From positions 3,659-67,658 of the forward strand of contig CAYGWM010000001.1 in the NCBI GenBank assembly GCA_964353555.1: a stretch of 64,000 nt of DNA, written 5' to 3'. The notes beneath the pieces were generated by a model. That model was given only the letters and a program-made list of their open reading frames with translations. It searched no databases and was not told the DNA's origin. Within the stretch, counting starts at the first letter, position 1, and each line of letters starts with the position of its first letter. The position numbers and the translations under genes are program-made. The stretch comes from an uncultured Spirochaetales bacterium. Lineage in GTDB: Bacteria; Myxococcota_A; UBA9160; PR03. Below, piece after piece: positions 5,387 to 55,581 of the stretch.

Positions 5387-5464
5387 TCACGCGTCTCGCT
5401 CGTTCGGTGGCTCCCCCGACGGCGGATTGATACCGTCGGCTTCCACCTCCGAGGGAGACCCCCC

Positions 5465-17902: not shown

Positions 17903-17905
17903 TCG

Positions 17906-18865
<960 letters not shown>

Positions 18866-18949
18866 GCCGGCCAAGGATACATCCTCCGTTGCACGCGCCG
18901 ACCTACGGCCAAATTGCCCAGCGGTTGCTCGTCGCAATCAATGTCGCGG

Positions 18950-25132: not shown

Positions 25133-25228
25133 GTTCGGCCGTTTGGACGGCACGAACCCCTCGGGGTCATCTCGCGAACCAGCGGGCGATCCCGCTACTC
25201 TGGCGAGTCCCGCGCCCCCGGAGCCTCG

Positions 25229-27001: not shown

Positions 27002-27004
27002 GTT

Positions 27005-27178
27005 GTTGACTCGTGTTGACTCGGGGACGCGTTGACTCGGGGACGTTCGTTGCGCCGGTTGACTTGGGGACGTTGGTTGCGCGAGTTGCGTCCAGGAACG
27101 TCCCCAACGCAAACGGCGCAACCAACGTCCCCAACGCAACTCGAGCAACGAACGTCCCCGACGCAACGGCGCGTGCTA
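27005..27178. repeat. palindromic array of 27-nt repeats (about 3.5 forward units, then 3 inverted units)
   Basis: Forward units are 27031-27057 GTTGACTCGGGGACGTTCGTTGCGCCG and 27058-27084 GTTGACTTGGGGACGTTGGTTGCGCGA, with partial units at 27005 and 27015. Inverted units are 27098-27124, 27125-27151 and 27152-27178 (ACGTCCCC[A/G]ACGCAAC...). A 17-bp perfect stem pairs 27066-27082 with 27116-27132, and a 15-bp stem pairs 27039-27053 with 27145-27159. Confidence 0.8.
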
Positions 27179-27198
27179 GGTTCCGGGGGGCGCGCAGT

Positions 27199-30881: not shown

Positions 30882-33122
30882 GTGGTGCCGCGGAAGTGCG
30901 CGATGTCGCCGGTGAGTGACGACCCCTTCCGATCCCGATCTGCGCCGTCTCGGCGCACGGATTTGATCGTCCTGTCGGGCATCATCGCGTCGTCCGTGGC
31001 CGTGACCGCGCTCCCCATATTCTTGTCGGGGCATCTCCATCACGACACGCTCGGCGTCTTTCCATACTTCCTGGACAACTTCGTATCGCTGTACCGCTTC
31101 GGAGAACCAGCCTGGTGGTCTCCCAAGATCAGCTTCGGATTCCCGACGTACTTCTATGCCCTCGTCGGAATCGTCAACGCCGGCAAGCCGGCATTCATGT
31201 TCGTGGGGCTGCTGGTCTGGATGCTGGGACGGCTCGGCATCGACATTCCCGACATGGTTCCCGTGTACATCTTCTACTTCGCCGTGCTGCTTCCCGCGTT
31301 GTTCGTGGTCGGCGTGGGACTCGTCGCGCGACGACTGCTCCGTTCGCGGGTGGCGCTTCTCTATGTGATGATCGTCGCGGCGTTCTCGCCCGGTGTGATC
31401 CTGAATCTGACCGACCCGGGAATGCTCGAGTACATGGCCTATTGCCTGTTCTGCGTCGCGGCCTACTTCGACTTCGTCGCCAGACCGAGCGCGCGGTCGT
31501 TTGCGCTCTTGTGTCTCTGCGGTGGGCTGATCAGCCTCGCCTTCAGCCAGTACGCTCTGATGACTGCGATTCCGTGGCTTCCGCTCCTCGTGATCACTTC
31601 GGCGGCAGTCTCGAAGTCGGCGCGAGCGGCGCTTCGGAGTGTGCCCATCTGGCAATGGGCGGCGGCGGCGATGCTGATCGTCGTGACGGCTTTGCCGAGC
31701 CTGATCGCTTATGCGCAGCAGCGCGACGAGACGACCCAGTACTCGCTGGACGGTTTCGAGTATTCCTTCTCCCGCATCAAGCCGGGGAACCCGCTCGAGT
31801 TCCTGCTCGCTAGCGTGCCGGCGATCACGTTCGAATGGGACGACTACCATCAAGGTGAGGACGCGCCCATCTCGGAGTTCAGGGCGGACGGGCTCGAGCG
31901 AGGCCGGCCCGGCGGCTTCGACTATCTGGGTGTGCTCGCCATTCCACTCGCGGCGCTGGGATTGGTGTACGGCCGTCGCCGTCTGCGGGTTCCGCTGTTC
32001 ATCATGCTGGTAGCGGCGATGACCGTCCTCGCGCTGCCGGGCTTCAGCCCGCTGTTCTCGCTGCTCCTCGCCTTCCCCTCGCCCCTGCGGAGCATGAATC
32101 ACTACGGCGATCTGCTGTATCGCGGCGGTGGATTCCTGCTGCTGCTCTTTGCGGCAGGCATGGGTCTCGAAGCGGCGCTGCGGCGTCGCGCCGTTCTCGA
32201 GCGGCTCGCGCCGCTCCTTGCCGCCACCAGCGTCGTGTCGCTGGGTGTCTGGTTCCACTTCGGACGGCCGGCGCAGAGTCTAGTGGGATTCTGCATGGCG
32301 CTGACGGTCTGTTTCCTGGTGGTGTTGCTGTGGGCCGCTCGTCTGCCGCGAAGGAGCGGCTCTCGGCTGCTCGCTGCTGGCATCCTGGGGCTTACCGCGA
32401 TCGACGTCTCGACCGCCGCATTCTGGCACATCCGCCTCCTGGTCATCGGTGAGCGCCAGCACTACGGACTCGGAGCAGGGCAGGGTCGCGACGATCCCTA
32501 TCCCGAAACCCAGGTCGCGGTGCTGATGCGCGAGACCAAGAAGATGGGCGAACGCGGCCTGCCTCTGGAGCGGATTCCATCGGTGAGCGCGTTCTGCAGC
32601 GCGCACACCTACGAGGATCTGCCGTCCGCGAGCGATTTCGAGCGCGCTCTCGACGTACCCAAGGCGGAACGTTCCCTGCCGCTGCCTGCGACGCTGCGGG
32701 ACGACGAATCGCTGCGCGCCTTCTTCGACCGACCTCCGGGGCAACCCTGCAAGACCTGGCTCGAACACGGCGGAAGCTTCAACTCGAAGCACGTGGTCGT
32801 CACCGCGGACCAGCCGACTCTCGTGCTCTTCGGCGACGCCTACGCGAAAGAGTGGCGCGCTACCGTCGATGGGATCCCGACACCCGTTCATCGCGCATTC
32901 GGAGCCTTCAAGGCGGTGTCCGTGCCTGCCGGCAAGTCTGATCTGCGACTCCGCTTCGAGCCGCCGTTGGTCGGCAAGGCGCTCGGGGGCGCCTACCTGG
33001 TCATGGTGGTGCTGGGACTCGTCGTGCTGCGGATGCCGCCGGACCGCGGGCCCTCCGGAACATCGTTTGCATCCTCGTCGCGACGAGACCGCCGACCGGA
33101 AGAACACAGCCAGCTGCGATAG
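30882..33122 (+). CDS. YfhO-like polytopic membrane protein (second copy)
   Basis: 746 aa with many TM helices. The C-terminal domain 'WRATVDGIPTPVHRAFGAFKAVSVPAGKSDLRLRFEPP' plus a final TM parallels the 15668..17902 protein. An alternative ATG is at 30903. Confidence 0.7.
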   Translation: MVPRKCAMSPVSDDPFRSRSAPSRRTDLIVLSGIIASSVAVTALPIFLSGHLHHDTLGVFPYFLDNFVSLYRFGEPAWWSPKISFGFPTYFYALVGIVNAGKPAFMFVGLLVWMLGRLGIDIPDMVPVYIFYFAVLLPALFVVGVGLVARRLLRSRVALLYVMIVAAFSPGVILNLTDPGMLEYMAYCLFCVAAYFDFVARPSARSFALLCLCGGLISLAFSQYALMTAIPWLPLLVITSAAVSKSARAALRSVPIWQWAAAAMLIVVTALPSLIAYAQQRDETTQYSLDGFEYSFSRIKPGNPLEFLLASVPAITFEWDDYHQGEDAPISEFRADGLERGRPGGFDYLGVLAIPLAALGLVYGRRRLRVPLFIMLVAAMTVLALPGFSPLFSLLLAFPSPLRSMNHYGDLLYRGGGFLLLLFAAGMGLEAALRRRAVLERLAPLLAATSVVSLGVWFHFGRPAQSLVGFCMALTVCFLVVLLWAARLPRRSGSRLLAAGILGLTAIDVSTAAFWHIRLLVIGERQHYGLGAGQGRDDPYPETQVAVLMRETKKMGERGLPLERIPSVSAFCSAHTYEDLPSASDFERALDVPKAERSLPLPATLRDDESLRAFFDRPPGQPCKTWLEHGGSFNSKHVVVTADQPTLVLFGDAYAKEWRATVDGIPTPVHRAFGAFKAVSVPAGKSDLRLRFEPPLVGKALGGAYLVMVVLGLVVLRMPPDRGPSGTSFASSSRRDRRPEEHSQLR

Positions 33123-35542: not shown

Positions 35543-35622
35543 TTGCGCGCAGCATGGCCCAGCCGGGGTGCAGGTGCCCGGCGACCGTGGAACAATGCGC
35601 TGCCCACCAACAGGAGGTCAGA

Positions 35623-36555
35623 TTGCGGGTTCTCGTCACGGGCGGCGCGGGGTATCTCGGCTCGATTCTCTGCGAGCATCTGCTCGCCGCGGGGCACCGC
35701 GTGACCGCGCTCGACGCGCTCCATCACAGCGTGCCGTCGCTGCTGCACCTGTGCGAAAATGCGCGCTTCGAGTTCGTTCGCGGCGACGCGCGCGACGAAG
35801 CGCTGCTCGCTCGGCTGGTGGCAGACGCCGACGCGATCATCCCGCTCGCGGCAGTGGTCGGCGCGCCGGCCTGTGATCGCGATCCGTGGCTCGCGACGTC
35901 CACCAACCTCGACGCGATCCGCCTGCTGCTGCGGCTGCGCTCGCCCGAGCAGCTGATCGTGTATCCGACGACGAACAGCGGTTACGGCACGCAATCGGGC
36001 GATGTCCTCTGCACCGAGGAGACGCCGCTCGAGCCGATCTCCTTGTACGGCCGCACCAAGGTGCAGGCGGAAGCCGACGTGCTGGCCAGCCCGAACGCGA
36101 TCACGCTGCGACTCGCGACGGTGTTCGGAACGTCGCCGCGGATGCGACTCGATCTGCTCGTCAACCACTTCGTCTACGCGGCCGTCACCGATGGCTATCT
36201 GGTGCTGTTCGAGCAGGAGTTCAAGCGCAACTTCATCCACATCCGCGATGTCGCCGACTGCTTCGTGCACTGCCTTGCGAACCCGCAGCGGATGCTCGGT
36301 CGGGCGCACAATGCGGGACTCGACAGCGCGAACATCTCGAAGGGCGAACTCGCCGCCGCGGTGCAGAAGCAGGTGCCGAACTTCCACGTCGTCGTCTCGG
36401 CGATCGGCTCGGATCCCGACAAGCGCAACTACATCGTCTCCAACCAGCGACTTCGAGAAGCCGGCTTCGAGGCGCGTCGCTCGCTCGAGGACGGCATCCG
36501 CGAGCTGCTGCGCGCCTATCGGATGCTCCCGCTCGGCAACTTTCGGAACGCGTGA
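35623..36555 (+). CDS. NAD-dependent sugar epimerase/dehydratase (extended SDR)
   Basis: TTG start 5 nt after 'aggagg'. 'VLVTGGAGYLGS' and catalytic 'SLYGRTK' (YxxxK). Confidence 0.8.
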   Translation: MRVLVTGGAGYLGSILCEHLLAAGHRVTALDALHHSVPSLLHLCENARFEFVRGDARDEALLARLVADADAIIPLAAVVGAPACDRDPWLATSTNLDAIRLLLRLRSPEQLIVYPTTNSGYGTQSGDVLCTEETPLEPISLYGRTKVQAEADVLASPNAITLRLATVFGTSPRMRLDLLVNHFVYAAVTDGYLVLFEQEFKRNFIHIRDVADCFVHCLANPQRMLGRAHNAGLDSANISKGELAAAVQKQVPNFHVVVSAIGSDPDKRNYIVSNQRLREAGFEARRSLEDGIRELLRAYRMLPLGNFRNA

Positions 36556-37298
36556 CGAAGTCGAACGCACTCGCCGAAATCCCGGTCGCGATCCTGGCCG
36601 GCGGACTCGGTACACGGCTGCGCCCATCGATCGGCGAACGGCCGAAGGTGGTCGCGGAAGTGAACGGCCGCCCGTTCCTTGCGTATCTGCTCGATCAGGT
36701 CGCGCGCTTCGGCTTCCGCGACGTGGTGCTCTGCGTGGGCTGGCAGGCGGACGCCGTCGAGGCGGCGCTCGGCGCGCGCCACGGACCGCTGCGACTGCGC
36801 TACTCGCGCGAGCCCGCGCCGCTCGGTACCGGCGGCGCACTGCGCCTCGCGCTGCCGCTGCTCGAAGGTCCCGCCGCGATGGTGATGAACGGCGATTCGT
36901 ACTGCGACGCCGATCTCGCCGCGGCCTGGGCATGGCACCGCGAAAAGCGCTCATCGGCGACGCTGGTACTGGTCGAGATGGCCGATACGTCCCGCTACGG
37001 CCGTGTCGAGCTCGACGAAAGCGATTCCAGCGGCTCGATCTGCCGCTTCCTGGAAAAGCAGCAAGGCAGCACACCAGGTTGGATCAATGCGGGAATCTAC
37101 CTGCTGGACCGCTCTCGCATCGAGTCGATCGCGGCGGACCGCGCGCTGTCGTTCGAGCTCGACGTGCTGCCGGGCTGGGTGGGCGCGGGGCTGATGGGCC
37201 ATCGCGTGGAAGCTCGTTTCATTGATATAGGAACGCCTCAATCGTATTCTACTGCGTCCCGATTCTTCGAGGGGGAAGCCTGGAGGAAGACCGAGTGA
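36552..37298 (+). CDS. sugar-1-phosphate nucleotidyltransferase (HddC-like, D-glycero-D-manno-heptose-1-P guanylyltransferase family)
   Basis: 'VAILAGGLGTRLRP...PKVVAEVNGRPFL', 'EPAPLGTGGAL', 'MNGDSY' and 'SRYGRV...FLEK'. The GTG overlaps the upstream stop (GTGA). Confidence 0.8.
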   Translation: MTKSNALAEIPVAILAGGLGTRLRPSIGERPKVVAEVNGRPFLAYLLDQVARFGFRDVVLCVGWQADAVEAALGARHGPLRLRYSREPAPLGTGGALRLALPLLEGPAAMVMNGDSYCDADLAAAWAWHREKRSSATLVLVEMADTSRYGRVELDESDSSGSICRFLEKQQGSTPGWINAGIYLLDRSRIESIAADRALSFELDVLPGWVGAGLMGHRVEARFIDIGTPQSYSTASRFFEGEAWRKTE

Positions 37299-38353
37299 TC
37301 ATCAGCCGCACGCCCTACCGCATCTCCTTCTTCGGAGGCGGCACTGATTATCCGGACTGGTACCGCGAGCATGGCGGCGCGGTGCTCGCGACCTCGATCG
37401 ACAAGTACTGCTATCTCTCCGCACGCTTCCTGCCGCCGTTCTTCGAGCACAAGATCCGCGTCGTCTACTCGAAGATCGAGGATTGCCACGACATCGACGA
37501 GATCCAGCACCCGGCGGTCCGCGAGATCCTGCGCTTCCTGCGCTTCGAGCGCGGCGTCGAGATCCACCATGACGGCGACCTGCCGGCGCGCAGCGGGATC
37601 GGCTCCTCCTCGTCGTTCTGCGTCGGCCTGCTGCACGCACTCTACGCGCTCACCGGCAAGATGCCGAGCAAGCACCAGCTCGCGACCGAGGGCATCCACA
37701 TCGAGCAGGAAGTGCTGAACGAAACGGTCGGCTCGCAAGACCAGGTGACGGCGGCCCACGGCGGCTTCAACCACCTGATGTTCCAGCCGAGCGGCGAGAT
37801 CTCGGTGCGGCCGATCACGATCGGCCCACAGCGGATGCACGAACTCGAGTCGCATCTGCTGCTCTTCTTCACCGGCGTGAGGCGCACCTCTTCGGATGTG
37901 GCGCAGAGCTACGTCCACAATTTCGACGGCAACAAGCGTCACTTGCGGATCATGAAGGACCTCGTCGACGAAGCCCTGGCGGTGCTGTCGAGCGATCGCC
38001 CGCTGGAGAACTTCGGCACGCTGCTGCACGAATCGTGGCTCGCGAAGCGCAGTCTCTCGAAAGAGGTCTCGACCTCCGAGATCGACGAGATCTATCAGAG
38101 CGCGCTCGGCGCGGGCGCGCTCGGTGGGAAACTGCTCGGCGCTGGCGGTGGCGGGTTCCTGCTGCTCTTCGCCAGTCCGGATCGCCACGAGATCCTGAAG
38201 CAGAAACTCGACGGTCTGATCCACGTCCCGTTCCGCTTCGAGTCCGGCGGCTCGCAGATCATCTTCTACGACCCCGAGGCGGACTACACTGCCGAGGAGC
38301 GCGTACGTGCCAATGGTCCGCCCAAGGTGTTCCGCGAGCGCGGCGGCTGCTGA
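37295..38353 (+). CDS. GHMP-family sugar kinase (HddA-like)
   Basis: 'IISRTPYRISFFGGGTDYPDWY', the GHMP ATP motif 'DLPARSGIGSSSSF', 'GSQDQVTAAHGGFN' and 'GGKLLGAGGGGFLLLF'. GTGA overlap with the upstream gene. Confidence 0.85.
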   Translation: MIISRTPYRISFFGGGTDYPDWYREHGGAVLATSIDKYCYLSARFLPPFFEHKIRVVYSKIEDCHDIDEIQHPAVREILRFLRFERGVEIHHDGDLPARSGIGSSSSFCVGLLHALYALTGKMPSKHQLATEGIHIEQEVLNETVGSQDQVTAAHGGFNHLMFQPSGEISVRPITIGPQRMHELESHLLLFFTGVRRTSSDVAQSYVHNFDGNKRHLRIMKDLVDEALAVLSSDRPLENFGTLLHESWLAKRSLSKEVSTSEIDEIYQSALGAGALGGKLLGAGGGGFLLLFASPDRHEILKQKLDGLIHVPFRFESGGSQIIFYDPEADYTAEERVRANGPPKVFRERGGC

Positions 38354-38363
38354 GCGGTGCCAG

Positions 38364-39311
38364 TTGGACACCGAGGCGCGGATCTTCGTCGCGGGCGGCG
38401 GTGCGCTGGTCGGCGACGCGCTGCTGCGGCGCCTGCGCGACGCCGGCTTCGTGAATCTTCTTGGCGTTGGCGACACCGAACCGGATCTGCGCGACGCCGA
38501 AGCCGTCGATGAGTTCTTCGCGAGCGAACGCCCCGAGTACGTGTTCCTGCTCGGTGGGCGCTCCGGCGGCATCGCGCGCAACCTGCGCGAACCCGCCGAG
38601 TTGATGCTCGACAACCTGCGCATCGAGACCGCGCTGATCCCAGCCGCGCACCGCCATGGCGTCCGCAAACTGCTCTATCTCGCCGCCGCCTGCATCTACC
38701 CGCGCGACTGCGAGCAGCCGATGCGGCCCGCGCAGCTCGGCAGCGGTCCGGTCGAGCCCAGCAGCGAGGCGTACGCGATGGCAAAATGGGCGGGTCTCGT
38801 GTTGTGCCGCGCCTACGCACGGCAGTACGGCGCGCGCTTCATCACCGCGATTCCGGCGAACCCATTTGGGCCGGGCGACGACACGCGCTCCGAAGATGCC
38901 CATGTCGTCGGCGCTCTGATCCGGCGGATGCACGAGGCGAAGCAGCGAGGCGACGCGGAAGTGATCGTGTGGGGCACCGGTCGCGCGCGCCGCGATTTCC
39001 TGTTCGCGCCCGATCTCGCCGACGCGCTGGTCTTCCTGATGCAGCGCTACGACGGCGAGCAACCGATCAACGTGTCGGGCGCATCGGATGTCGCGATCGG
39101 CGAGCTGGCTGAGTGCATCCAGAAGGTGGTCGGCTTCAGCGGCCGGCTGCGCTTCGACGCGAGCCGTCCCGACGGCGCGCCGCGCAAAACGCTCGACGGC
39201 GAGGCGCTCCACGCACTCGGCTGGTCGCCGCGTCACGCGCTCGAGGAAGCGCTCACTGCTACGGTTCGCTGGTTCGTCGAGTCCGAGTCGGGAGCGGCGA
39301 CGCATGGCTGA
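38364..39311 (+). CDS. GDP-L-fucose synthase-like NDP-4-keto-sugar epimerase/reductase
   Basis: 'IFVAGGGALVG', 'ACIYP', 'YAMAKWAG' (YxxxK), 'VWGTGRARRDFLF' and 'DASRPDGAPRKTLD'. TTG at 38364 is the first in-frame start after the kinase stop. Confidence 0.8.
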   Translation: MDTEARIFVAGGGALVGDALLRRLRDAGFVNLLGVGDTEPDLRDAEAVDEFFASERPEYVFLLGGRSGGIARNLREPAELMLDNLRIETALIPAAHRHGVRKLLYLAAACIYPRDCEQPMRPAQLGSGPVEPSSEAYAMAKWAGLVLCRAYARQYGARFITAIPANPFGPGDDTRSEDAHVVGALIRRMHEAKQRGDAEVIVWGTGRARRDFLFAPDLADALVFLMQRYDGEQPINVSGASDVAIGELAECIQKVVGFSGRLRFDASRPDGAPRKTLDGEALHALGWSPRHALEEALTATVRWFVESESGAATHG

Positions 39312-40254
39312 TCTCGATCGCATCTACCGCTCGCTGTTCCGGATCCGCCGCGTCGAGGAGGAGATCGCGCGCGTCTATCCGACCGACGTGATCAAGAGCC
39401 CGGTGCACCTTTCGATCGGTCAGGAATCCGTCTCGGTCGGACTCTGCGAAGCATTGCGACCGGATGACGCCGCGTTCGGCACCTACCGCAGCCATGCGCT
39501 CTATCTCGCGAAGGGCGGCGACCTGCGCGCGATGATCGCGGAGCTGTACGGCAAGGCGACCGGCTGTGCGGGTGGCAAGGGCGGCTCGATGCACATGATC
39601 GACGTCGCGGCCGGCGTGTTCGGTTCTTCCGCAGTGGTGGGAACGACGATCCCGCACGCGGTCGGCTACGCGTACGCGGTGAAGCTGCGCCGCGAGTCGC
39701 GCGTGGTGGCGTGCGTCTTCGGCGACGGCGCGGTCGACGAGGGCGTCTTCTACGAGAGCCTGAACTTCGCCGCATTGAAGCGCCTCCCGGTGATCTTCGT
39801 GTGCGAGAACAACAGCTACGCGATCCATACCCACCAACGGCTGCGGCAGCGCGTGGCGGACGTCTGCGCGCGCGTGACCGCGCTCGGCATCCCCGCGGAG
39901 CGCATCGACGACGGTGACGTGCTGCGGATCGCCACGCGCGCGCGTGCGGCGAGCGATGCGCTGCGCGGCGGCGACGCCGGTCCCGTCTTCATCGAGTGCA
40001 TGACGTATCGATGGAAGGAACACGTCGGCCCGGGCGAGGACTGGAACCTCGGCTATCGCGGGCGCGCCGAAGCCGAGCCCTGGATCCGCGGGGACCAGGT
40101 CGCGCGGCTCGCGACGACGATCGACCAGGTCGCGCGCAAGCGAATCGAGAGCGAGGTGGAGGCTGAGATCGCCGACGCCTTCGCGTTTGCCGAGGGCTCG
40201 CCGTTCCCGGATCCGACCGCGCTGCACACCCAGGTGTTCCGGGAGTCGCCGTGA
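39304..40254 (+). CDS. ThDP-dependent 2-oxoacid dehydrogenase E1 component, alpha subunit-like
   Basis: 'IKSPVHLSIGQE', 'YRSHA', 'GKGGSMH' and the ThDP motif 'GDGAVDEGVFYESLNFAALKRLPVIFVCENNSYA'. The ATG overlaps the upstream gene by 8 nt. Confidence 0.85.
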   Translation: MADLDRIYRSLFRIRRVEEEIARVYPTDVIKSPVHLSIGQESVSVGLCEALRPDDAAFGTYRSHALYLAKGGDLRAMIAELYGKATGCAGGKGGSMHMIDVAAGVFGSSAVVGTTIPHAVGYAYAVKLRRESRVVACVFGDGAVDEGVFYESLNFAALKRLPVIFVCENNSYAIHTHQRLRQRVADVCARVTALGIPAERIDDGDVLRIATRARAASDALRGGDAGPVFIECMTYRWKEHVGPGEDWNLGYRGRAEAEPWIRGDQVARLATTIDQVARKRIESEVEAEIADAFAFAEGSPFPDPTALHTQVFRESP

Positions 40255-41300
40255 GCGAGCGCGAGCAGAGCTACGTCGACGCGCTGCGCGAGGCCGCGTT
40301 CCAGGAGATGGAGCGCGATCCGTCGGTCGTCTGCTTCGGCCTCGATGTGGACGATCCGAAGGCGATCCAGGGCACTACGCGCGGGCTCGTCGATAAATTC
40401 GGCCCGGAGCGCGTGTTCGGCACGCCGCTCGCCGAAGACGCGATGACCGGCGTTGCGATCGGCATGGCGCTCGCCGGCCTGCGCCCGATCCACGTGCACA
40501 TCCGGATGGATTTCTTGCTGCTGGCGATGAACCAGCTGATCAACATCGCGGCGAAGAGCCATTACATGTATGGCGGTCACGTCCACGTGCCGATCGTCGT
40601 GCGCTCGATGATCGGCAAGAGCTGGGGGCAAGGTGCCCAGCATTCGCAGGGACTCTATTCGTTCTTCATGCACGTGCCGGGCATCAAGGTGGCGGCGCCC
40701 ACCAATCCCCACGACGCGAAGGGCTGTCTCATTGCAGCGATTCGCGACGACAACCCGGTGATGCTCGTCGAACACCGGCTGCTGTATCCACACGAGGGGC
40801 CCGTGCCGCAGGCGCTCTACGAAGTGCGGCCCGGGCGCGCCCGCGTCGCAGCGCCGGGCAGCGACGTCACGTTGGTGGGCATCTCGCACATGTTGGTGGA
40901 GTGCCTGCAAGCGCGCACGTATCTCGCCGAGAAGGGCGTTTCAGCCGAGGTGATCGACCCGATCTGGCTGGCGCCGCTCGACATCGACACGATCGTGGCG
41001 TCGGTTGCGAAGACCGGCCGGCTGGTCGCGGTGGACAATGGCTGGACGACTTGCGGCGCCTCGGCGGAGATCGTTGCCCGCGTGGTCGAGCGTTTGCAGG
41101 GCACGCGCGACATTCGCGTGCACCGGATGGGCTTCGCGCCCACCACCTGCCCGCCGACGCCGGGCCTCGAGAAGCTCTTCTACGCCGATGCGCGCACGAT
41201 TGCGGCCGCTGCCAACGATCTGGTCGAAGGTCGCAGCACGGGTTGGCTTCCTGCCGAGCGTCCGAGCTCCGGTGAGATCACGTTCCGGGGACCGTTCTGA
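40251..41300 (+). CDS. E1 component beta subunit-like (transketolase pyrimidine-binding and C-terminal domains)
   Basis: 'RVFGTPLAEDAMTGVAIGMALAGLRP', 'QHSQ' and 'APTNPHDAKGCL'. GTGA overlap with the alpha subunit. Confidence 0.85.
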   Translation: MSEREQSYVDALREAAFQEMERDPSVVCFGLDVDDPKAIQGTTRGLVDKFGPERVFGTPLAEDAMTGVAIGMALAGLRPIHVHIRMDFLLLAMNQLINIAAKSHYMYGGHVHVPIVVRSMIGKSWGQGAQHSQGLYSFFMHVPGIKVAAPTNPHDAKGCLIAAIRDDNPVMLVEHRLLYPHEGPVPQALYEVRPGRARVAAPGSDVTLVGISHMLVECLQARTYLAEKGVSAEVIDPIWLAPLDIDTIVASVAKTGRLVAVDNGWTTCGASAEIVARVVERLQGTRDIRVHRMGFAPTTCPPTPGLEKLFYADARTIAAAANDLVEGRSTGWLPAERPSSGEITFRGPF

Positions 41301-42478
41301 TGTCCTGGCCGCTGATGCGCAACAACATCTCACGTGAAGATTTGCAGGCGGTGATCCGGTTCCTGTCGGCCGACGATCCGATCCTCACGCAGTCGAAACA
41401 GGTGGAACTCTTCGAGCAGGAATGGTCGGAGTGGCTGGGCGTACAGCACTCGGTATTTGTGAACTCGGGTTCGTCGGCGAATCTGATCACGATGGCGGCG
41501 CTGCGCCACCGCTACGGCCCGGGCGAGGTGATCGTACCGACGCTCACCTGGGTCTCCGACATCACCGCGGTGCTGCATGCGGGTCTGACGCCGGTGTTCG
41601 TCGACATCGATCCGCGCACGCTCGGGATGGACAACGACGCGGTGATCGAGAAGCTGTCGCCGCGCACGCGCGCGGTCTTCCTGACGCACATCCTCGGCTA
41701 CAACGCGCTCGGCGACCGGCTGCTCGATACGCTGCGCGAGCGCCGCATTCCGCTGATCGAGGACGTCTGCGAGTCGCACGGTGCGACCTTCGCGGGCCGC
41801 AAGCTCGGCACCTTCGGACTCGCGTCGAATTTCTCGTTCTATTACGCGCATCACATGAGCACGATCGAAGGCGGCATGGTTTCGACCGACGACGCCGAGC
41901 TGTTTGCCATGCTCCGCATGTTGCGCGCCCACGGACTCGTGCGCGAAGCCGGCGATGATGCGGTGAAGAGCCGCTACGCCGAGGCGCACCCGGATCTCAC
42001 GCCTGACTTCATTTTTGCGCTGCCCGGCTTCAACGTGCGCTCGACCGAGATCAACGCGGTAATGGGTCGCTCGCAGCTGCGCCGTCTCGACGCGAACAAC
42101 GAACGCCGTCGCGCGAACCTCGCGGTGTTCCTGCGCCATCTCGATCCGAACAAGTACTTCACCGACTTCGCCACCGAGGGAAGCTGCAACTACGCCTTCA
42201 CGCTGGTGCTGCGCGATCCGGACGACGCGCTTCGCGATCGCGTGATGACCGCGCTCCGCGAGCGCGGCATCGAGTTTCGGCGCGGCACCTCGGGCGGCGG
42301 CAATCAGCTCCGCCAGCCCTACCTCCGAGGGATCGTCGCTGCGGAAGATCTCGGCCGCTTTCCGCGCGTCGATCACGTCCATTTCTACGGCTTCTACATC
42401 GGCAACTACCCCGATCTCGAGCCCGAACGGATCGCCCGCCTCTGCGATATGTTGAACGCAATCGACAGTGGGAAGTAG
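41300..42478 (+). CDS. DegT/DnrJ/EryC1-fold PMP-dependent NDP-4-keto-6-deoxysugar 3-dehydratase (ColD / E1 DdhC type)
   Basis: DegT-family fold ('NSGSSANL', 'IEDVCESHGA'). At the Schiff-base position the sequence reads 'FSFYYAHHMSTIEGGM', with His instead of Lys. This is the signature of ColD and CDP-hexulose 3-dehydrase E1. Confidence 0.75.
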   Translation: MSWPLMRNNISREDLQAVIRFLSADDPILTQSKQVELFEQEWSEWLGVQHSVFVNSGSSANLITMAALRHRYGPGEVIVPTLTWVSDITAVLHAGLTPVFVDIDPRTLGMDNDAVIEKLSPRTRAVFLTHILGYNALGDRLLDTLRERRIPLIEDVCESHGATFAGRKLGTFGLASNFSFYYAHHMSTIEGGMVSTDDAELFAMLRMLRAHGLVREAGDDAVKSRYAEAHPDLTPDFIFALPGFNVRSTEINAVMGRSQLRRLDANNERRRANLAVFLRHLDPNKYFTDFATEGSCNYAFTLVLRDPDDALRDRVMTALRERGIEFRRGTSGGGNQLRQPYLRGIVAAEDLGRFPRVDHVHFYGFYIGNYPDLEPERIARLCDMLNAIDSGK

Positions 42479-42483
42479 GCATC

Positions 42484-43989
42484 ATGGCGACCGACATCGA
42501 TCTGGTCCTCGTGAACCCGGGCGGTCGCGCCCGCATCTATCAGTCGCTTGCGACGGAGGTCACCGCCGTCGAACCGCCCGTATGGGCGGGACTGATGGCC
42601 AGTTTCGTCCGCGGGCGTGGTCACTCGGTTGCGATCATCGACTCGAACGCCGAAGAGCTGGGACCGGAAGAAGCAGCCGCACGCGCGATCGAGATGCGGC
42701 CGCGGATGGTCGCGGTGCCCGTCTACGGTCACCAGCCGTCCGCCTCGACGCAGGTGATGCCGGGTGCGAGCGCGGTCGTGACCGCGCTGAAGGACCTCGC
42801 GCCCGAGCTGCCCGTATTGATGGTCGGCGGTCACGTCGCATCGCTGCCGCAGCGCACGCTCGCCGAGGAGCGCTGCGACTTCGTCGCCGACGGCGAGGGC
42901 CTGCACACGATGGTGGAGCTGCTCGAAGCGCTCGCCGCGAGCAGCACACCCGAATTCTCGCGCGTGCGCGGCCTCTGGACACGTGATGGCGACGGCGCGA
43001 AATGCACTGCGACCGCGCCGCTGGTGATGAACGTGGACGTCGAGATGCCGGGCGTCGCGTGGGACCTGCTGCCGATGCAGAAGTACCGCGCGCACAACTG
43101 GCACTGCTTCGGCGAAGCGAGCCGCGAGCCCTACGTCGCGCTCTACACCACGCTCGGGTGTCCGTACCACTGCTCGTTCTGTTGCATCCAGGCGCCGTTC
43201 AAGAGCGGCGAGTCGCTGGCCGGCTACAAGGACAGCGTCAACTCGTACCGCTTCTGGAGTCCCGCGCGCGTGCTCGAGGATCTGACGCTGCTGGTCGAAC
43301 GCTACGGCGTTCGCAACATCAAAGTTGCCGACGAGATGTTCGTGCTGAACGCGCGCCACGTGAACGCGATCTGCGACGGCATCGTCGCGCGCGGCCTGCC
43401 GCTGAACATCTGGGCGTATGCACGCGTCGACACCGTGAAGGATTCGATGGTCGACAAGCTGGCGCGCGCCGGCGTACGTTGGCTCGCCTTCGGCATCGAG
43501 GCCGCCAGCGAACGCGTGCGCGCCGACGTCGACAAGGGCTTCGACGACGAACTGGTCTACCGCACGCTCGAGAAGGTGCGCGGCGCCGGCATCCGCGTGA
43601 TCGGCAACTACATCTTCGGCCTGCCGGAAGACGATCACGACACGATGCAAGAGACGCTCGACCTCGCGATCGAGCTCAACTGTGAGTTCGCAAACTTCTA
43701 CTGCGCGATGGCGTACCCCGGATCGCCGCTCTACGACCGCGCGATCGCCGAGGGCTGGCCGCTGCCCGAGACCTGGGGCGGCTACTCGCAGCACAGTGTC
43801 GACTCGCTGCCGCTGCCCACGCGCCACCTCTCGGCCGGCGAGGTGCTGCGCTTCCGCGATGAAGCCTTCCAGGCCTACTTCAAGAGCCCGCGGTACCTGT
43901 CGATGGTCGAAGCGAGGTTCGGCGCTGCGACGCTGCGCGAGATCGCCGCGATGTCCGCGCACCGGCTCGAGCGGCGGTTCGCCGCGTGA
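42484..43989 (+). CDS. B12-binding-domain radical SAM enzyme (class B)
   Basis: N-terminal Rossmann-like cobalamin-binding domain ('DLVLVNPG...', 'VGGHVASLP'), then 'TTLGCPYHCSFCC' (CxxxCxxC). 501 aa. Confidence 0.85.
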   Translation: MATDIDLVLVNPGGRARIYQSLATEVTAVEPPVWAGLMASFVRGRGHSVAIIDSNAEELGPEEAAARAIEMRPRMVAVPVYGHQPSASTQVMPGASAVVTALKDLAPELPVLMVGGHVASLPQRTLAEERCDFVADGEGLHTMVELLEALAASSTPEFSRVRGLWTRDGDGAKCTATAPLVMNVDVEMPGVAWDLLPMQKYRAHNWHCFGEASREPYVALYTTLGCPYHCSFCCIQAPFKSGESLAGYKDSVNSYRFWSPARVLEDLTLLVERYGVRNIKVADEMFVLNARHVNAICDGIVARGLPLNIWAYARVDTVKDSMVDKLARAGVRWLAFGIEAASERVRADVDKGFDDELVYRTLEKVRGAGIRVIGNYIFGLPEDDHDTMQETLDLAIELNCEFANFYCAMAYPGSPLYDRAIAEGWPLPETWGGYSQHSVDSLPLPTRHLSAGEVLRFRDEAFQAYFKSPRYLSMVEARFGAATLREIAAMSAHRLERRFAA

Positions 43990-44936
43990 GCGCGCCGGTG
44001 CTTTCGGTCGTGCTGTCGTTCCGCAACGAGGCGGACGTGATCCCGGAGTTGATCTCCCGGCTCGCAAAGTCGCTCGAAGGCGCCGGCATCGACTACGAGC
44101 TGATCTTCGTGAACGACGCCTCTACGGATGGCTCGCTCGCGCTACTCGAAGCACTGCGCGCTCGCGATCCGCGCGTGAAGATCCTGAACATGTCGCGTCG
44201 CTTCGGTGTGGCTCCCTGCGTGATGGCGGGTATGCAATTCGCGCGGGGCGACGCCGTCGTCTACATGGACACGGACCTGCAGGATCCGCCCGAGCTGATC
44301 CCGACGCTGGTTGCGCGCTGGCGCGAAGGTGCCGACGTCGTCTACACGGTGCGCACTTCGCGACAGGGCGAGTCGGTATGGAAGATGCGCGTGACGCGCG
44401 CCGCGTACCGCGCGATCCAGCTCGCGTCGGACATCGAACTGCCGATCGAGGCAGGCGACTTCAAGTTGCTTTCGCGACGCGTCGTCGACCAACTGATCGC
44501 GCTCGGCGAGCAGGATCTCTACGTGCGCGGGCTCGTCACGTGGATGGGATTCCGGCAGGTGGCGGTGCCGTACGAACGCCAGCCGCGCGGCGCGGGTGAG
44601 GCGCACTTCCCGCTGTTGCGGAGCTGGGGGCCGATTTCTTCATTTGTTGCCGGCGTGACGTCGTTCTCGCATGCGCCATTGATTGCTTTTCTGCTGCTCG
44701 GCCTCGCCGGTGGCGCGCTCTCGATGCTCGCGCTCGCGCTGCTGCTGCTCGCTGGTGTCGTCGGCGCAGCGGCCTCGAGCATCGCGTGGCTCGTCGCATT
44801 CGGCGTGCTGCTGTGGAGTACGCTGGCGCTCGGGATCGGCGTCATCGGTCTCTATCTCGCACGCATCCATCGCGAGGTGCTCGGACGGCCGCGCTACATC
44901 GTGGAGAGCGCCATCGGCTTCGATGAGCCGAGCTGA
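43986..44936 (+). CDS. polyprenyl-phosphate glycosyltransferase (GT2, ArnC/GtrB-like; third copy)
   Basis: 'LSVVLSFRNE', 'IFVNDASTDGS', 'RRFGVAPC' and 'MDTDLQDPPE', then two C-terminal TM helices and 'GLYLARIHREVLGRPRYIV'. GTGA overlap with the rSAM gene. Confidence 0.85.
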   Translation: MSAPVLSVVLSFRNEADVIPELISRLAKSLEGAGIDYELIFVNDASTDGSLALLEALRARDPRVKILNMSRRFGVAPCVMAGMQFARGDAVVYMDTDLQDPPELIPTLVARWREGADVVYTVRTSRQGESVWKMRVTRAAYRAIQLASDIELPIEAGDFKLLSRRVVDQLIALGEQDLYVRGLVTWMGFRQVAVPYERQPRGAGEAHFPLLRSWGPISSFVAGVTSFSHAPLIAFLLLGLAGGALSMLALALLLLAGVVGAAASSIAWLVAFGVLLWSTLALGIGVIGLYLARIHREVLGRPRYIVESAIGFDEPS

Positions 44937-46899
44937 GCAGCTGTCGTCGTCCGCAGTGTCGCCCTTCAGCGCCGGCCGTCCGCTCGCCGGCGTAGTGGCG
45001 ATCAGCGCCGCGGCGGGGTTCGTGGTCGGTCTGCTGTTCCCTGCCTGGCACGTCGCGCTCGAACCCGCGCAGGTGATCGCTGGGATCGTCGAGTACCCGA
45101 GCGGCAATCCATTCGGACTCTACGAAACACGGCTATGGACCGGCTGGCACCAGGTCCTCGCGCCGCTGCTCGCGGCTGGTGTTCCGGAGCGCGTGCTGAC
45201 CTTCGTGCTCTCTGGTCTCGTCGCCGCGATTTCGTTCACAGCACTCACCGCATTTGCATACGGACTCGGCGCCGACGCCGAGCTTGCGATCGCGACACCG
45301 TTCGTGCTCGGCGTGCTGAACCCCACCTCGTGGCAGTTTTGGTACCCGATCATTTTGCTCGGCCATGGCCACACCTACGGCATGGCGGGACTTGCGTGGC
45401 TGGTGCTTGCCTGCGGTGTGCTCGCGACGGAACGCTGGGCGGTGGCAGCGTTTCTGATCGGCATCGCGCCCGCAGTACACGCGTCGCTCGGCGCGTGGCT
45501 CGGTCTGCTCGCGCTGGTTTGCGGACTCGCGCACTGGCGCGAGGTGCGCCCCCATGTCGCCGCGATCGTGCGCGGTGGCACGCTCGGCGCTTCGATCGCC
45601 GCGCTGAGTCTCGCGACACATCTGCTCCGCCAGCCCGCCGGGCTGGCGGTCGATCCCGCCGTCGCGAGCCGCTACCTCGATGGCTTCGTCCAGCTCTGGG
45701 ATGCGCACCGCATCCCCGGCAACGTGACGGGTTTCGGCGGGCTCGTGGTGTGCATCGGCCTGATCGTCGCCGTCGCAATGCTGCGATGTGCACGACGGCA
45801 GATCGGCGCCGCCACTGCACTGGTGCTGAACGTCTATGTCAGTTGCGGCGTGCTAGGCATCGCGCTGGCGCTCGTGCAGCGATTCGTGCCACCCGAGCAG
45901 ATCCCGAACACGCTGCTGATCGCGATGCCGGCGAGGCTGCTCAATCTGCCGGCGCTCGCGTTCGTGCCGCTGCTGATCGGCGTGCTCGGGCGCTACCGGA
46001 GCGATGTGGTGGCGCGCGCGCTGCTGGTCGTTTTGGTGACGGTCGCCGCGCTGCGTCCACTCTTCGCGGATCTCGCACTCTACGGCTTGCCGATCGTTGG
46101 TGTGGCGACGGCCCTTGTGATCGACCGCCACGCCGATCGTCCCGGCGCAATCCGGATCGCGGTGATCGGCATGCTGGCGTTTGCCGGGCTGCGCGCGACG
46201 CAGTCCACGGTTCCCCTCTCGTGGCGGGATGCGGCGTCGTTCGCTGCGATGCTGACCGCGGCGGCGCTGGGGGTCGGCGCTTCGCTGCAGCGAACGCGCG
46301 CGACCAACCGCGATGGATCGCTAGCGCGACTCGCGCGTCGCCTCGCCGAGCAGCCGTTGCCGCTGCAGCTTCCGCTGCGCATCGCACTCGTCGCGACGGT
46401 ACTGATCACGGTCAACGCGGCGATTCGCGGCTTCGAGTACCGCTTGTCACGGCTGCACGATCGCAGCAACGATCGAGCGCTGGCCGCCGCGTCGCGCGGC
46501 GACGGTCTGTTGCTGGTGGCGCCGCGCATTTCGACGCCGCAGCTGATCACGCGTCGCCCGGTGGTGCTCGATCCGGGCGCGCTCGACATGCTGCCCTACG
46601 CGCTCGCGGGTGGACCCGAGTTGGAGCGCATGCTGCGCATCGGCTACGGAGTCGAATTCTTCGCGCCGCCGCCGAAGGCGCTGCACACCGCGCTGTTGCC
46701 CAGCGAAGTCGTGCAGCCGATCTGGGAGAAGCGCAGCGGCGCGGAATGGCGCGAAGTTGCGACGAGTCTCGGCGTCACCGACGTGCTGGTTCCGGCGACG
46801 TGGAAGCTATCCGGCGTGCCGGAAGTCGAGCGCAGCAGCGCGTACGTGCTCTATCACCTCGCGACGCCCGCTGGCGCAGGTCCGGCCGGCACCCGATAG
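44923..46899 (+). CDS. polytopic membrane protein (658 aa), candidate GT-C-type transferase for the operon's sugar
   Basis: C-terminal 658 aa of ORF 44683..46899. About 12 or more TM helices, then a soluble C-terminal domain. The ATG at 44923 overlaps the GT2 by 14 nt. Family not recognised. Confidence 0.6.
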   Translation: MSRAEQLSSSAVSPFSAGRPLAGVVAISAAAGFVVGLLFPAWHVALEPAQVIAGIVEYPSGNPFGLYETRLWTGWHQVLAPLLAAGVPERVLTFVLSGLVAAISFTALTAFAYGLGADAELAIATPFVLGVLNPTSWQFWYPIILLGHGHTYGMAGLAWLVLACGVLATERWAVAAFLIGIAPAVHASLGAWLGLLALVCGLAHWREVRPHVAAIVRGGTLGASIAALSLATHLLRQPAGLAVDPAVASRYLDGFVQLWDAHRIPGNVTGFGGLVVCIGLIVAVAMLRCARRQIGAATALVLNVYVSCGVLGIALALVQRFVPPEQIPNTLLIAMPARLLNLPALAFVPLLIGVLGRYRSDVVARALLVVLVTVAALRPLFADLALYGLPIVGVATALVIDRHADRPGAIRIAVIGMLAFAGLRATQSTVPLSWRDAASFAAMLTAAALGVGASLQRTRATNRDGSLARLARRLAEQPLPLQLPLRIALVATVLITVNAAIRGFEYRLSRLHDRSNDRALAAASRGDGLLLVAPRISTPQLITRRPVVLDPGALDMLPYALAGGPELERMLRIGYGVEFFAPPPKALHTALLPSEVVQPIWEKRSGAEWREVATSLGVTDVLVPATWKLSGVPEVERSSAYVLYHLATPAGAGPAGTR

Positions 46900-55522: not shown

Positions 55523-55581
55523 GATGGATGATGCCACCCCGCGCGGCTGTCGCGCGAACGATCCAGGTCTAGAATGCCGCG

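Follow-up and report, generated by a model that had tools for sequence, protein, structure and literature searches.

The capsular heptoses of Campylobacter jejuni are made with an HddA-like kinase, an HddC-like transferase, a C4-dehydrogenase, a pyridoxal phosphate (PLP)-dependent C3-dehydratase of the histidine type, and a short-chain dehydrogenase/reductase (SDR) of the Fcl family. Relatives of all these enzymes are encoded by ten consecutive genes at positions 35623-46899 of the 64,000-nucleotide stretch of DNA analysed here (the window), which is part of contig CAYGWM010000001.1 (assembly GCA_964353555.1) of an uncultured Spirochaetales bacterium with a GTDB lineage in Myxococcota_A. On balance, we consider it probable that the ten genes are one operon for a nucleotide-activated heptose with extensive modifications, which a lipid carrier would take to the envelope. 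Its chemistry would depart from that of C. jejuni in several respects. In the latter the 3-dehydratase follows a 4,6-dehydratase, and the pairing of a C4-dehydrogenase with a 3-dehydratase is artificial: Cj1427 together with the C3-dehydratase of C. jejuni HS:5 converts GDP-heptose into GDP-D-glycero-3-deoxy-4-keto-heptose in vitro, with a mass value of 616.08 recorded for the product (PMC10680097). In the operon the predicted pairing is native. C. jejuni, moreover, has separate cupin epimerases and neither an E1 alpha/beta pair nor a radical S-adenosylmethionine (SAM) enzyme, and its sugar is installed by cytoplasmic capsule glycosyltransferases, whereas here a family 2 glycosyltransferase (GT2) and a polytopic membrane protein would take their place.

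Other described systems resemble parts of the operon. The colitose pathway (Gmd, ColD, and ColC) shares the GDP-linked substrates, the Fcl/ColC family to which gene 4 belongs, and ColD itself, the best solved relative of gene 7, with His replacing the catalytic Lys. Unlike that pathway, the operon is devoid of a Gmd-type 4,6-dehydratase, would keep the 6-OH, would act on a C7 rather than a C6 substrate, and adds a thiamine diphosphate (ThDP)-dependent E1 pair and the radical SAM enzyme. Stand-alone E1 alpha and beta subunits without E2/E3, encoded beside enzymes for 4-keto (3-deoxy) sugars and with a reductase available, also occur as AviB1/AviB2 (avilamycin) and Pau11/Pau12 (paulomycin), to which the attachment of two-carbon units at C4 of keto sugars has been ascribed (PMC4425429). 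These precedents come from actinomycete antibiotic pathways, and genes 5 and 6 are likened to them by context rather than by direct sequence comparison. The YerE-type enzymes of yersiniose and erwiniose, a further branching analogy (PMC9306805), are single chains resembling acetohydroxyacid synthase (AHAS), are encoded in O-antigen clusters, and act on 3,6-dideoxy-4-keto hexoses. Compared with all these branching enzymes, the pair encoded in the operon would use a derivative of GDP-heptose as acceptor, and the genes lie in envelope glycan clusters of Gram-negative bacteria from many phyla. The last two genes recall the pairs GtrB/GtrC, ArnC/ArnT, CsbB/YfhO, and PgfS/PgfM1: gene 9 matches GtrB and ArnC over its full length, and the next gene encodes a large polytopic protein whose C-terminal domain is soluble. 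In contrast to those pairs, gene 10 belongs to no named family of the GT-C class of glycosyltransferases, and the operon has no GtrA- or ArnE/F-like flippase. Gene 8 shares its domain architecture, its CxxxCxxC motif, and its fold with HpnJ, BchE, AprD4, TsrM, TokK, and GenK (Foldseek E-values down to 5e-21), but it scores below the cut-off of every named family of this type and forms a very large family of its own. No nearest characterised system combines all these elements, and all the parts come from known enzyme superfamilies.

The ten genes, of which those making the sugar are hereafter called the cassette, are arranged as follows:

Gene 1, 35623..36555, + strand, 310 aa: extended SDR of the Cj1427 type, predicted GDP-heptose C4-dehydrogenase (Pfam Epimerase, 9e-31)
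Gene 2, 36552..37298, + strand, 248 aa: sugar-1-phosphate nucleotidyl (probably guanylyl) transferase, HddC/ManC-like (Pfam NTP_transferase, 2e-26)
Gene 3, 37295..38353, + strand, 352 aa: GHMP anomeric sugar kinase, HddA-like (GHMP_kinases_N and _C)
Gene 4, 38364..39311, + strand, 315 aa: GDP-L-fucose synthase-like SDR, epimerase/reductase (NCBIfam Fcl, 348 bits)
Gene 5, 39304..40254, + strand, 316 aa: ThDP-dependent E1 alpha (Pfam E1_dh, 5e-59)
Gene 6, 40251..41300, + strand, 349 aa: E1 beta (Transket_pyr, 1e-34; Transketolase_C, 1e-28)
Gene 7, 41300..42478, + strand, 392 aa: predicted ColD-type sugar 3-dehydratase dependent on PLP or pyridoxamine phosphate, His for Lys (DegT_DnrJ_EryC1, 4e-69)
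Gene 8, 42484..43989, + strand, 501 aa: radical SAM enzyme with a B12-binding domain, of an unnamed, very large family (B12-binding, 1e-14; Radical_SAM, 6e-15)
Gene 9, 43986..44936, + strand, 316 aa: GtrB/ArnC-type polyprenyl-phosphate glycosyltransferase, GT2 domain and C-terminal transmembrane (TM) hairpin (Glycos_transf_2, 3e-31)
Gene 10, 44923..46899, + strand, 658 aa: polytopic membrane protein with a C-terminal soluble domain, candidate GT-C-like transferase (no Pfam or NCBIfam model)

The ten open reading frames (ORFs) contain no internal stops, and the G+C content of their third (GC3, 0.80-0.89) and second (GC2, 0.41-0.52) codon positions matches the coding signature of a 68% G+C genome, as the window is throughout (ca. 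68%). Read from the sequence, neighbouring genes overlap by 4 nt (GTGA) at 36552, 37295, 40251, and 43986, by 8 nt at 39304, by 1 nt (TGATG) at 41300, and by 14 nt at 44923, and are separated by 10 nt (38354-38363) and 5 nt (42479-42483) at the two remaining junctions. At the 5' end of the operon gene 1 starts with TTG, 5 bases after an AGGAGG Shine-Dalgarno sequence (35607-35612). The starts chosen for genes 1, 4, and 10 agree with the gene lengths in the orthologous loci L003 and L005; for gene 4, a gene caller picked an alternative GTG start 57 nt upstream on an identical contig. A consensus scan, which has low power in such a genome, found no promoter- or terminator-like sites inside the block above shuffle expectation. 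The gene 7 protein was seen only on a Logan contig and the gene 10 protein on a contig of an NCBI metagenome-assembled genome (MAG), and the relatives are labelled as Myxococcota or 'Deltaproteobacteria' MAGs. A first-pass annotation of the window had reported ten co-directional genes with these nine junctions, which the sequence confirms; its family calls were reproduced with Pfam and NCBIfam, and, as it had remarked, no gmhA, gmhB, or classical 4,6-dehydratase is present among the annotated genes of the window.

All ten genes recur in unchanged order in L003, L005, and L006, in which gene 10 is 49%, 66%, and 85% identical, respectively, and L019 has nine of the ten in the same order before its contig ends. 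The flanks vary by lineage: close relatives carry a divergent amidohydrolase gene upstream and DsbA, ThiJ, and P450 genes downstream, while L003 has a CofH-like radical SAM gene directly upstream of gene 1 and other genes downstream. The same order at 49-66% gene 10 identity, together with different flanks, therefore marks the block as conserved, and not as ORFs that merely happen to be adjacent.

Gene 1 matches PDB entry 6VO6 over its full length (343 bits, E 1e-101, 51% identity over 308 residues), and the motifs TNSGYG, YGxxK, and RLATVFGxSPRMRLDLLVN are common to gene 1, 6VO6, and all cassette orthologues. We take 6VO6 to be Cj1427, the GDP-heptose C4-dehydrogenase, the depositors' name being 'putative sugar-nucleotide epimerase/dehydratase'. 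The T-D-E acid/base motif of 4,6-dehydratases is absent from gene 1, which has TNSGYG in its place. Gene 1 was also considered as the missing 4,6-dehydratase, an assignment rejected in favour of a C4-dehydrogenase on the grounds of the 6VO6 match and the lack of that motif. The 'extended SDR' of the first-pass annotation is thus an SDR indeed, now narrowed to a predicted C4-dehydrogenase type, so that the operon would have no classical 4,6-dehydratase and no 6-deoxygenation, and the intermediate would retain its 6-OH rather than being a 4-keto-6-deoxy sugar. Cj1427 oxidises C4, recycles its tightly bound NADH with alpha-ketoglutarate, and leaves the 6-OH in place (PMC10680097).

That the starting sugar would be a heptose is suggested by gene 3 and, above all, by the composition of orthologous cassettes. 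The best NCBIfam model for gene 3 is HddA (135 bits, against a cut-off of 600), and its best PDB matches are 3K85, 4USK, and 4N3O (116-126 bits). Of these, 4N3O is a putative heptose 7-phosphate kinase, and 4USK, deposited simply as a 'putative sugar kinase', is presumably WcbL. In L012, from a cyanobacterial isolate, GmhB, GmhA, and a NUDIX protein are all encoded inside the cassette, in the order SDR, nucleotidyltransferase, GmhB, GmhA, NUDIX, kinase, Fcl-like, E1 alpha, E1 beta, DegT, and radical SAM, the whole being located within a GT1/GT2/rml polysaccharide cluster. Among the sequence comparisons, this embedding is the best evidence for heptose as the starting sugar. GmhA or GmhB is present as well in L013, L021, L034, L040, L056, L066, L068, L072, L086, and L104.

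Genes 4 to 7 would provide the modifying steps. By its scores, gene 4 is a close relative of the true GDP-fucose synthases (NCBIfam Fcl 348 bits, cut-off 500; 265-286 bits with the PDB GDP-fucose synthases). It retains YxxxK and the Cys equivalent to Cys109 of E. coli GDP-fucose synthase. In the segment LYLAAACIYP (residues ~104-110), the Ser of the SSC motif (Ser107 in E. coli) is replaced by Ala; this is seen in the clade of the window only, SSC being present in almost all other Fcl-like orthologues of the cassette and in the true synthases, and the change may have altered the reductase activity. Gene 5 scores 283 bits with the NCBIfam model of the pyruvate dehydrogenase (PDH) E1 alpha subunit (cut-off 394) and 164 bits with human PDH E1 alpha in the PDB, its ThDP motif GDG-X26-NN being intact in the translation, and gene 6 scores 275 bits with the PDH E1 beta model (cut-off 321). 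No annotated gene of the window carries a lipoyl or 2-oxoacid_dh domain, the marks of an E2/E3 partner, and a role of the pair in central metabolism was accordingly rejected. A pyridine-nucleotide oxidoreductase at 1-1152, 34 kb distant, has a Reductase_C and not an E3 dimerisation domain. A match to an E1 alpha/beta pair on a Streptomyces plasmid lies in a condensation-domain/acyl carrier protein context and in no sugar cluster, and is not used as support. Gene 7 finds ColD as its best PDB match (2GMS, 172 bits), ahead of E1/AscC (3BCX, 132 bits). Its YYAHHMST aligns with FYSHHIAT of ColD, the first His of AHHM falling on position 188, the residue of the H188N and H188K mutant entries. This His is kept in all DegT orthologues of the cassette, at 30 to 94% identity, whereas the flanking DegT paralogues of the same loci have Lys at the site; the earlier reading of a His-for-Lys replacement is therefore upheld. 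With only three Cys residues, gene 7 has no 4-Cys [2Fe-2S] motif, and a Pfam scan of the ten genes revealed no AscD-type reductase. Gene 7 is accordingly a predicted ColD-type His-dehydratase.

The sugar-making core consisting of kinase, Fcl-like SDR, E1 alpha, E1 beta, His-type DegT, C4-dehydrogenase, and B12-binding radical SAM enzyme was found in Cyanobacteria, Rhodospirillales, and Desulfovibrionales, and is frequent in metagenome contigs. Eighty metagenome loci (80) were fetched and scored by tblastn with the window proteins, 33 of them having at least 6 kb upstream of the radical SAM gene. Among these 33, E1 alpha, E1 beta, and DegT each occur in 31, the kinase in 29, the Cj1427-like SDR and the Fcl-like SDR in 24 each, the nucleotidyltransferase in 14, the GtrB-like GT2 in 9, GmhB in 5, a gene 10 homologue in 4, and GmhA in 2, and the E1 pair adjoins the His-DegT gene in 31. 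The neighbourhood association of dehydratase, E1 pair, and radical SAM enzyme is hence found (31 of 33 loci), and the combination is not confined to the window. The cassette is widespread and uncharacterised, and the ending with GT2 and gene 10 is one of several lineage-specific uses of its product.

Several cultured organisms carry the cassette. On plasmid pDMC1 of Solidesulfovibrio magneticus RS-1 the order is GT2, GT2, radical SAM, NUDIX, kinase, E1 alpha, E1 beta, Fcl, DegT, SDR, nucleotidyltransferase, PMT-type GT-C, gene 10 homologue, and lhgO. In Azospirillum lipoferum 4B the cassette is in two parts on plasmid p6, with SDR-E1 alpha-E1 beta-DegT 22 kb away from the other part. It resides on plasmids in A. 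ramasamyi and A. thermophilum too, and on draft chromosomal contigs in A. halopraeferens, Ferrovibrio, and Magnetospirillum moscoviense. A. argentinense Az39 has a plasmid-borne variant in which a split transketolase replaces E1. Two further observations concern these neighbourhoods. The lhgO gene after the S. magneticus cassette (L015, 25450 onward) encodes L-2-hydroxyglutarate oxidase; Cj1427-type enzymes produce L-2-hydroxyglutarate, and its position is a circumstantial hint of Cj1427-type alpha-ketoglutarate chemistry. Beside the SDR-E1-DegT operon of A. lipoferum p6 (L099, 3745-6010) are mtnA and a methylthioadenosine (MTA) phosphorylase gene, possibly for the salvage of radical SAM by-products.

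At the membrane end of the operon, gene 9 aligns with GtrB (sll0501, 5EKP) over residues 6-312 of 316 (207 bits), ahead of ArnC (138 bits) and dolichol-phosphate mannose synthase (66 bits). The alignment to GtrB and ArnC spans the TM hairpin, and the protein has a DTD motif, hydrophobic segments at 219-295, and 210 bits with the NCBIfam model PgfS. Gene 10 has no Pfam or NCBIfam match, and ten diverse members of its family contain no real Pfam domain (one sub-threshold TPR match). The family is nevertheless large: a profile search of 1.84 billion representatives collected 1,489 at E<=1e-3 and 1,212 at E<=1e-10. From the inferred topology, gene 10 has an invariant Glu47 in the loop that follows TM1, and its last TM helix is succeeded by an alpha/beta domain at ~513-645. 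Its AlphaFold2 (AF2) model is of good internal quality (predicted local distance difference test, pLDDT, 87.7; predicted template modelling score, pTM, 0.89), and nine of its ten top Foldseek matches in the PDB are GT-C enzymes (EmbA/B/C, ALG9, AglB), with DPY19 and PglB at ranks 13 and 15. Homologues of gene 10 (28-47% identity) adjoin the cassette in 11 further loci, including that of S. magneticus pDMC1, in arrangements such as mem-kinase-E1-DegT-SDR-GT2-rSAM and rSAM-GT2-mem-mem (mem, membrane protein; rSAM, radical SAM), as well as that of S. magneticus. These homologues have the motifs P(A/D)WxVAxExAQV, HTYG, APxxHxSLG, WDxHR, MPxRxxN, and TRRPVxLD in common. A GtrB-like GT2 gene adjoins the radical SAM gene in several arrangements. 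Because GT2 and gene 10 family genes recur by the cassette in independent arrangements, the lipid-carrier route gains support.

Taken as a pathway, the operon could work as follows. The HddA-like kinase and the HddC/ManC-like transferase would make GDP-heptose, GmhA and GmhB presumably having their genes elsewhere in the genome. Gene 1 would oxidise C4, keeping the 6-OH, and gene 7 would remove the 3-OH to yield GDP-3-deoxy-4-keto-heptose. Genes 5 and 6 together would decarboxylate pyruvate or another 2-oxo acid and place the acyl-anion equivalent on a sugar carbonyl, most simply at C4, giving a two-carbon branch; this addition is inferred by analogy with the Avi, Pau, and YerE enzymes. Gene 4 would epimerise and/or reduce the leftover keto group, and gene 8 would add a radical step, be it C-methylation, the closing of a carbocycle, or the dehydration of a diol. 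The finished sugar would be loaded onto polyprenyl phosphate by gene 9 and, after flipping, transferred to a periplasmic acceptor by gene 10. Genes 1 to 9 are placed at the level of enzyme families, genes 2 and 3 as probable activating enzymes of the heptose type, and the heptose substrate and the product are predicted from the sequence comparisons. In the searchable literature we found no characterised equivalent of the cassette, no paper on it, and, in keeping with the first-pass annotation, no identical cluster assigned to a known glycan. Nor did gene-level data on caryose, bradyrhizose, and caryophyllose in the literature searched include a matching cluster; from an 11-gene cluster, a dTDP-glucose 4,6-dehydratase is the one enzyme that the bradyrhizose paper specifies.

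A number of observations weigh against this scheme. All family scores stay below the NCBIfam equivalog cut-offs, except those of genes 1 and 9. Gene 2 scores higher with mannose-1-phosphate guanylyltransferase (156 bits) than with HddC (131 bits, cut-off 300), both below the curated cut-offs, and neither the operon nor the annotated parts of the window contain gmhA or gmhB (SIS or HAD genes). The sequence tells neither in which order the steps occur nor which carbon the ThDP enzyme attacks. E1 alpha/beta genes are not near the radical SAM gene in M. moscoviense L102, L048, and L061; given these loci and the split transketolase of A. argentinense, the radical SAM step may not depend on the two-carbon branch. 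The GT-C fold matches of gene 10 are weak (E at best 9e-3, TM-score ~0.3), a search of PDB sequences with the gene 10 profile found nothing, and hhalign gave a probability of <1% against both the YfhO-like protein of the window and the PMT-like protein of S. magneticus. In the latter organism a PMT-type GT-C gene stands next to the gene 10 homologue, and gene 10 could therefore have another role. Finally, no flippase was identified in the operon. Of the two broader proposals in the first-pass annotation, the heptose-type sugar thus keeps the kinase match, the kinship of gene 1 with 6VO6, and the gmhA/gmhB genes of orthologous cassettes on its side, with the score of gene 2 speaking for mannose, and the lipid-carrier route keeps the GtrB/ArnC match of gene 9 and the recurrence of GT2 with gene 10, with the GT-C call for gene 10 weak. 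VTT/DedA-family genes lie beside a GtrB-like GT2 gene in S. magneticus (L015, 9610-10092) and in Ferrovibrio (L103, 3935-4546), and may handle the polyprenyl-phosphate carrier there; the operon of the window has no gene of this family.

Several of the rival readings turn on the radical step. Gene 8 combines an N-terminal B12-binding domain (PF02310, 54.7 bits) with a radical SAM core (PF04055, 56.2 bits), and its CxxxCxxC at C226/C230/C233 is invariant. Its homologues number more than 7,000, with 65-68% identity to proteins labelled as from Cyanobacteria, Pirellulales, Gemmataceae, Vicinamibacterales, and Omnitrophica; homologues of this protein alone are annotated also from Planctomycetes, Acidobacteria, and Omnitrophica. 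A second clade in Rhodospirillales is ~53% identical to gene 8 and 70-75% within itself. The family thus consists of at least two clades, with 65-75% identity inside each, and its genes keep company with those for the heptose kinase, E1, and DegT. Most characterised members of the B12-binding/radical SAM architecture are methylases. One may therefore read gene 8 as a class B C-methyltransferase, in which case the product would be an open-chain, yersiniose-like 3-deoxy-4-C-(acetyl or 1-hydroxyethyl)-heptose with an additional C-methyl group. This we hold to be possible, if on the unlikely side. The AF2 model (pLDDT 81) matches cobalamin-dependent TsrM, MgmA, TokK, and CysS at E-values of 1e-16 to 1e-20, followed by OxsB, but the foremost Foldseek match is the non-methylating AprD4; HpnJ (152 bits, cut-off 578), ApyD, and BchE (122 bits, cut-off 481) outscore the sugar/hopanoid methylase models (HpnR, 71 bits), and no examined sequence feature separates methylases from the other members. 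AprD4 has the same architecture as the methylases yet is a diol dehydratase, which works with a partner reductase and, to our knowledge, does not use cobalamin; the sequence of gene 8 therefore agrees with more than one chemistry. The C-methylation proposed in the first-pass annotation accordingly keeps its B12/radical SAM basis and becomes one of several possible roles. In a methylated product, the Fcl-like SDR could act like YerF, reducing the acetyl branch (PMC9306805).

For gene 10, the alternative is that it is not the glycosyltransferase but a flippase, a polymerase, or an acceptor-specific accessory, with a separate GT-C protein such as the YfhO-like product of 30882-33119 performing the transfer. 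We judge this unlikely, although the side-by-side genes of S. magneticus, the presence of the YfhO-like protein 2.5 kb upstream of gene 1, the weakness of the GT-C fold match, and the lack of profile similarity to YfhO and PMT all agree with it. The YfhO-like gene is absent from L003 and stands outside the conserved block, whereas gene 10 shows translational coupling with the GT2 gene; the predominance of GT-C enzymes among its fold matches and its architecture (a conserved first extracytoplasmic loop with the invariant Glu47, many TM helices, C-terminal soluble domain) would also suit a GT-C transferase. We therefore retain the weak call, based on the model, of gene 10 as a GT-C-like transferase. 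Attempts to place it in a known family by PDB profile, hhalign, Pfam, and blastp among the four large membrane proteins of the window gave no placement. The YfhO-like gene itself (30882-33119, + strand) encodes a 746-aa polytopic protein with a weak, sub-cut-off YfhO match (1.6e-5) and is situated between a CofH-like radical SAM gene and the divergent amidohydrolase gene; L003 lacks it at the matching place and has its CofH-like gene right next to gene 1. The YfhO-like protein may likewise draw on the lipid-linked sugar.

If AprD4 is followed instead, gene 8 would be a diol dehydratase acting on the C6-C7 diol of the heptose, and the C2 unit would lengthen the chain without a branch at C4, a reading that seems to us rather improbable; just as improbable is the sequel in which the new carbonyl is reduced by the Fcl-like SDR or extended by the ThDP enzyme. 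AprD4 is the best PDB match of gene 8 by sequence and by fold alike, though at an identity of only ~20%. Moreover, the steadiest neighbours of the radical SAM gene are the heptose kinase and often the Fcl-like and NUDIX genes (A. lipoferum, L048, L061, M. moscoviense), which fits a heptose-specific step independent of branching. However, the E1, DegT, and SDR genes of A. lipoferum are 22 kb away on the same plasmid, so that such 'minimal' loci may be split clusters, and E1 alpha/beta accompany the radical SAM gene in 31 of 33 loci. Independence of the radical SAM step from the E1 pair is thereby weakened, and not discarded, L102 being still without E1 nearby.

A hexose start, from GDP-mannose or a salvaged free sugar, would lead to a 3-deoxy C-branched hexose. 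The lack of gmhA/gmhB in the window, the score of gene 2, and the ManC-type genes near the cassette in L102 and L104 are compatible with it, but GDP-mannose synthesis requires no GHMP kinase, and a kinase is present in 29 of 33 loci, its best matches being heptose kinases. Furthermore, the cassettes of at least 11 loci contain gmhA or gmhB, and the closest solved relative of gene 1, if 6VO6 is Cj1427 as we assume, is an enzyme for heptose. Cj1427 acts on GDP-heptose (PMC10680097). A hexose is, in our view, improbable, and we continue to favour the heptose.

The remaining proposal, to which we give the least credence, is that the cassette makes a carbocycle of the caryose type (4,8-cyclo-3,9-dideoxy-nonose), with C1-C7 from the heptose and C8-C9 from a pyruvate-derived acetyl group; equally remote is the mechanism that goes with it, in which the E1 pair would acylate the C4 keto group and the radical SAM enzyme abstract a hydrogen from C7, the C7-C8 bond then closing the cyclopentane. 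The structure of caryose, with the statement that its biosynthesis is unknown, is given in PMC9092360. Its features match the enzyme set: a 3-deoxy position, a quaternary C4 with OH, a tertiary C8 with OH and the methyl C9, and retained 6-OH and 7-OH, the former as a C4-dehydrogenase and unlike a 4,6-dehydratase would give. In addition, HpnJ and BchE, the nearest named radical SAM families, are implicated in five-membered carbocycle formation (for HpnJ, PMC9092360). The resemblance is one of chemical logic alone, however: gene 8 misses the cut-offs of HpnJ and BchE by a wide margin, the structural neighbours of gene 8 are equally a diol dehydratase (AprD4) and methylases, some radical SAM loci have no E1 alpha/beta nearby, and the Fcl-like reductase is not obviously required.

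The rest of the window offers some side observations. A second pair of a GtrB-like GT2 and a big membrane protein is encoded at 15671-18937 (- strand), the GT2 (17909-18937) having C-terminal hydrophobic segments and standing immediately before a polytopic protein of 745 aa (15671-17905; no Pfam match), whose C-terminus is related to the YfhO-like protein of 30882-33119 (blastp, 2e-9). Further genes encode a 657-aa membrane protein with DUF7657 and DUF7654 (12049-14019, + strand) and a 574-aa single-chain ThDP enzyme of the AHAS/YerE class (5387-7108, + strand; TPP_enzyme N/M/C) with SDR, methyltransferase, and flavin-containing monooxygenase genes nearby. The first 20 kb of the window look like another envelope-glycan region. 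At 25133-29705 (+ strand) a nitrite/sulfite reductase-like gene precedes two radical SAM genes, of which the latter has a CofH/MqnC domain at its C-terminus, a set that could be of the F420 (FO synthase) or futalosine type; in L003 it is this CofH-like gene that is conserved next to the operon, on its upstream side. Downstream, at 55573-60036 (+ strand), is a gene for a 1,488-aa Lhr-type helicase. L003 and L004 likewise carry an Lhr gene on the downstream side of the operon, a hint of some synteny over longer distances. In L002/L008 (MAG contig_9106, 3.0 Mb) the cassette appears split into many short ORFs and gene 10 is divergently oriented; given the long-read assembly, the short ORFs are probably frameshift errors rather than pseudogenes.

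If our reading of the operon is right, a large proportion of environmental Gram-negative bacteria (among them Myxococcota, Cyanobacteria, Rhodospirillales, and Desulfovibrionales) would make an undescribed higher-carbon, 3-deoxy, C-branched heptose derivative, and a C4-dehydrogenase and a ColD-type dehydratase, so far combined only artificially in vitro, would be natural partners. Functions would likewise be assigned to two large unnamed families, the radical SAM enzymes with a B12-binding domain (thousands of members) and the polytopic membrane proteins (~1,200 representative clusters). Should the caryose-type carbocycle prove true, thousands of environmental bacteria in many phyla would make carbocyclic higher sugars and display them via a new family of GT-C-like transferases. 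The cassette is present in the cultured, genetically tractable Solidesulfovibrio magneticus RS-1, Azospirillum lipoferum 4B, A. halopraeferens, and Magnetospirillum moscoviense, and is a concrete candidate for the biosynthesis of carbocyclic or branched lipopolysaccharide sugars such as caryose.

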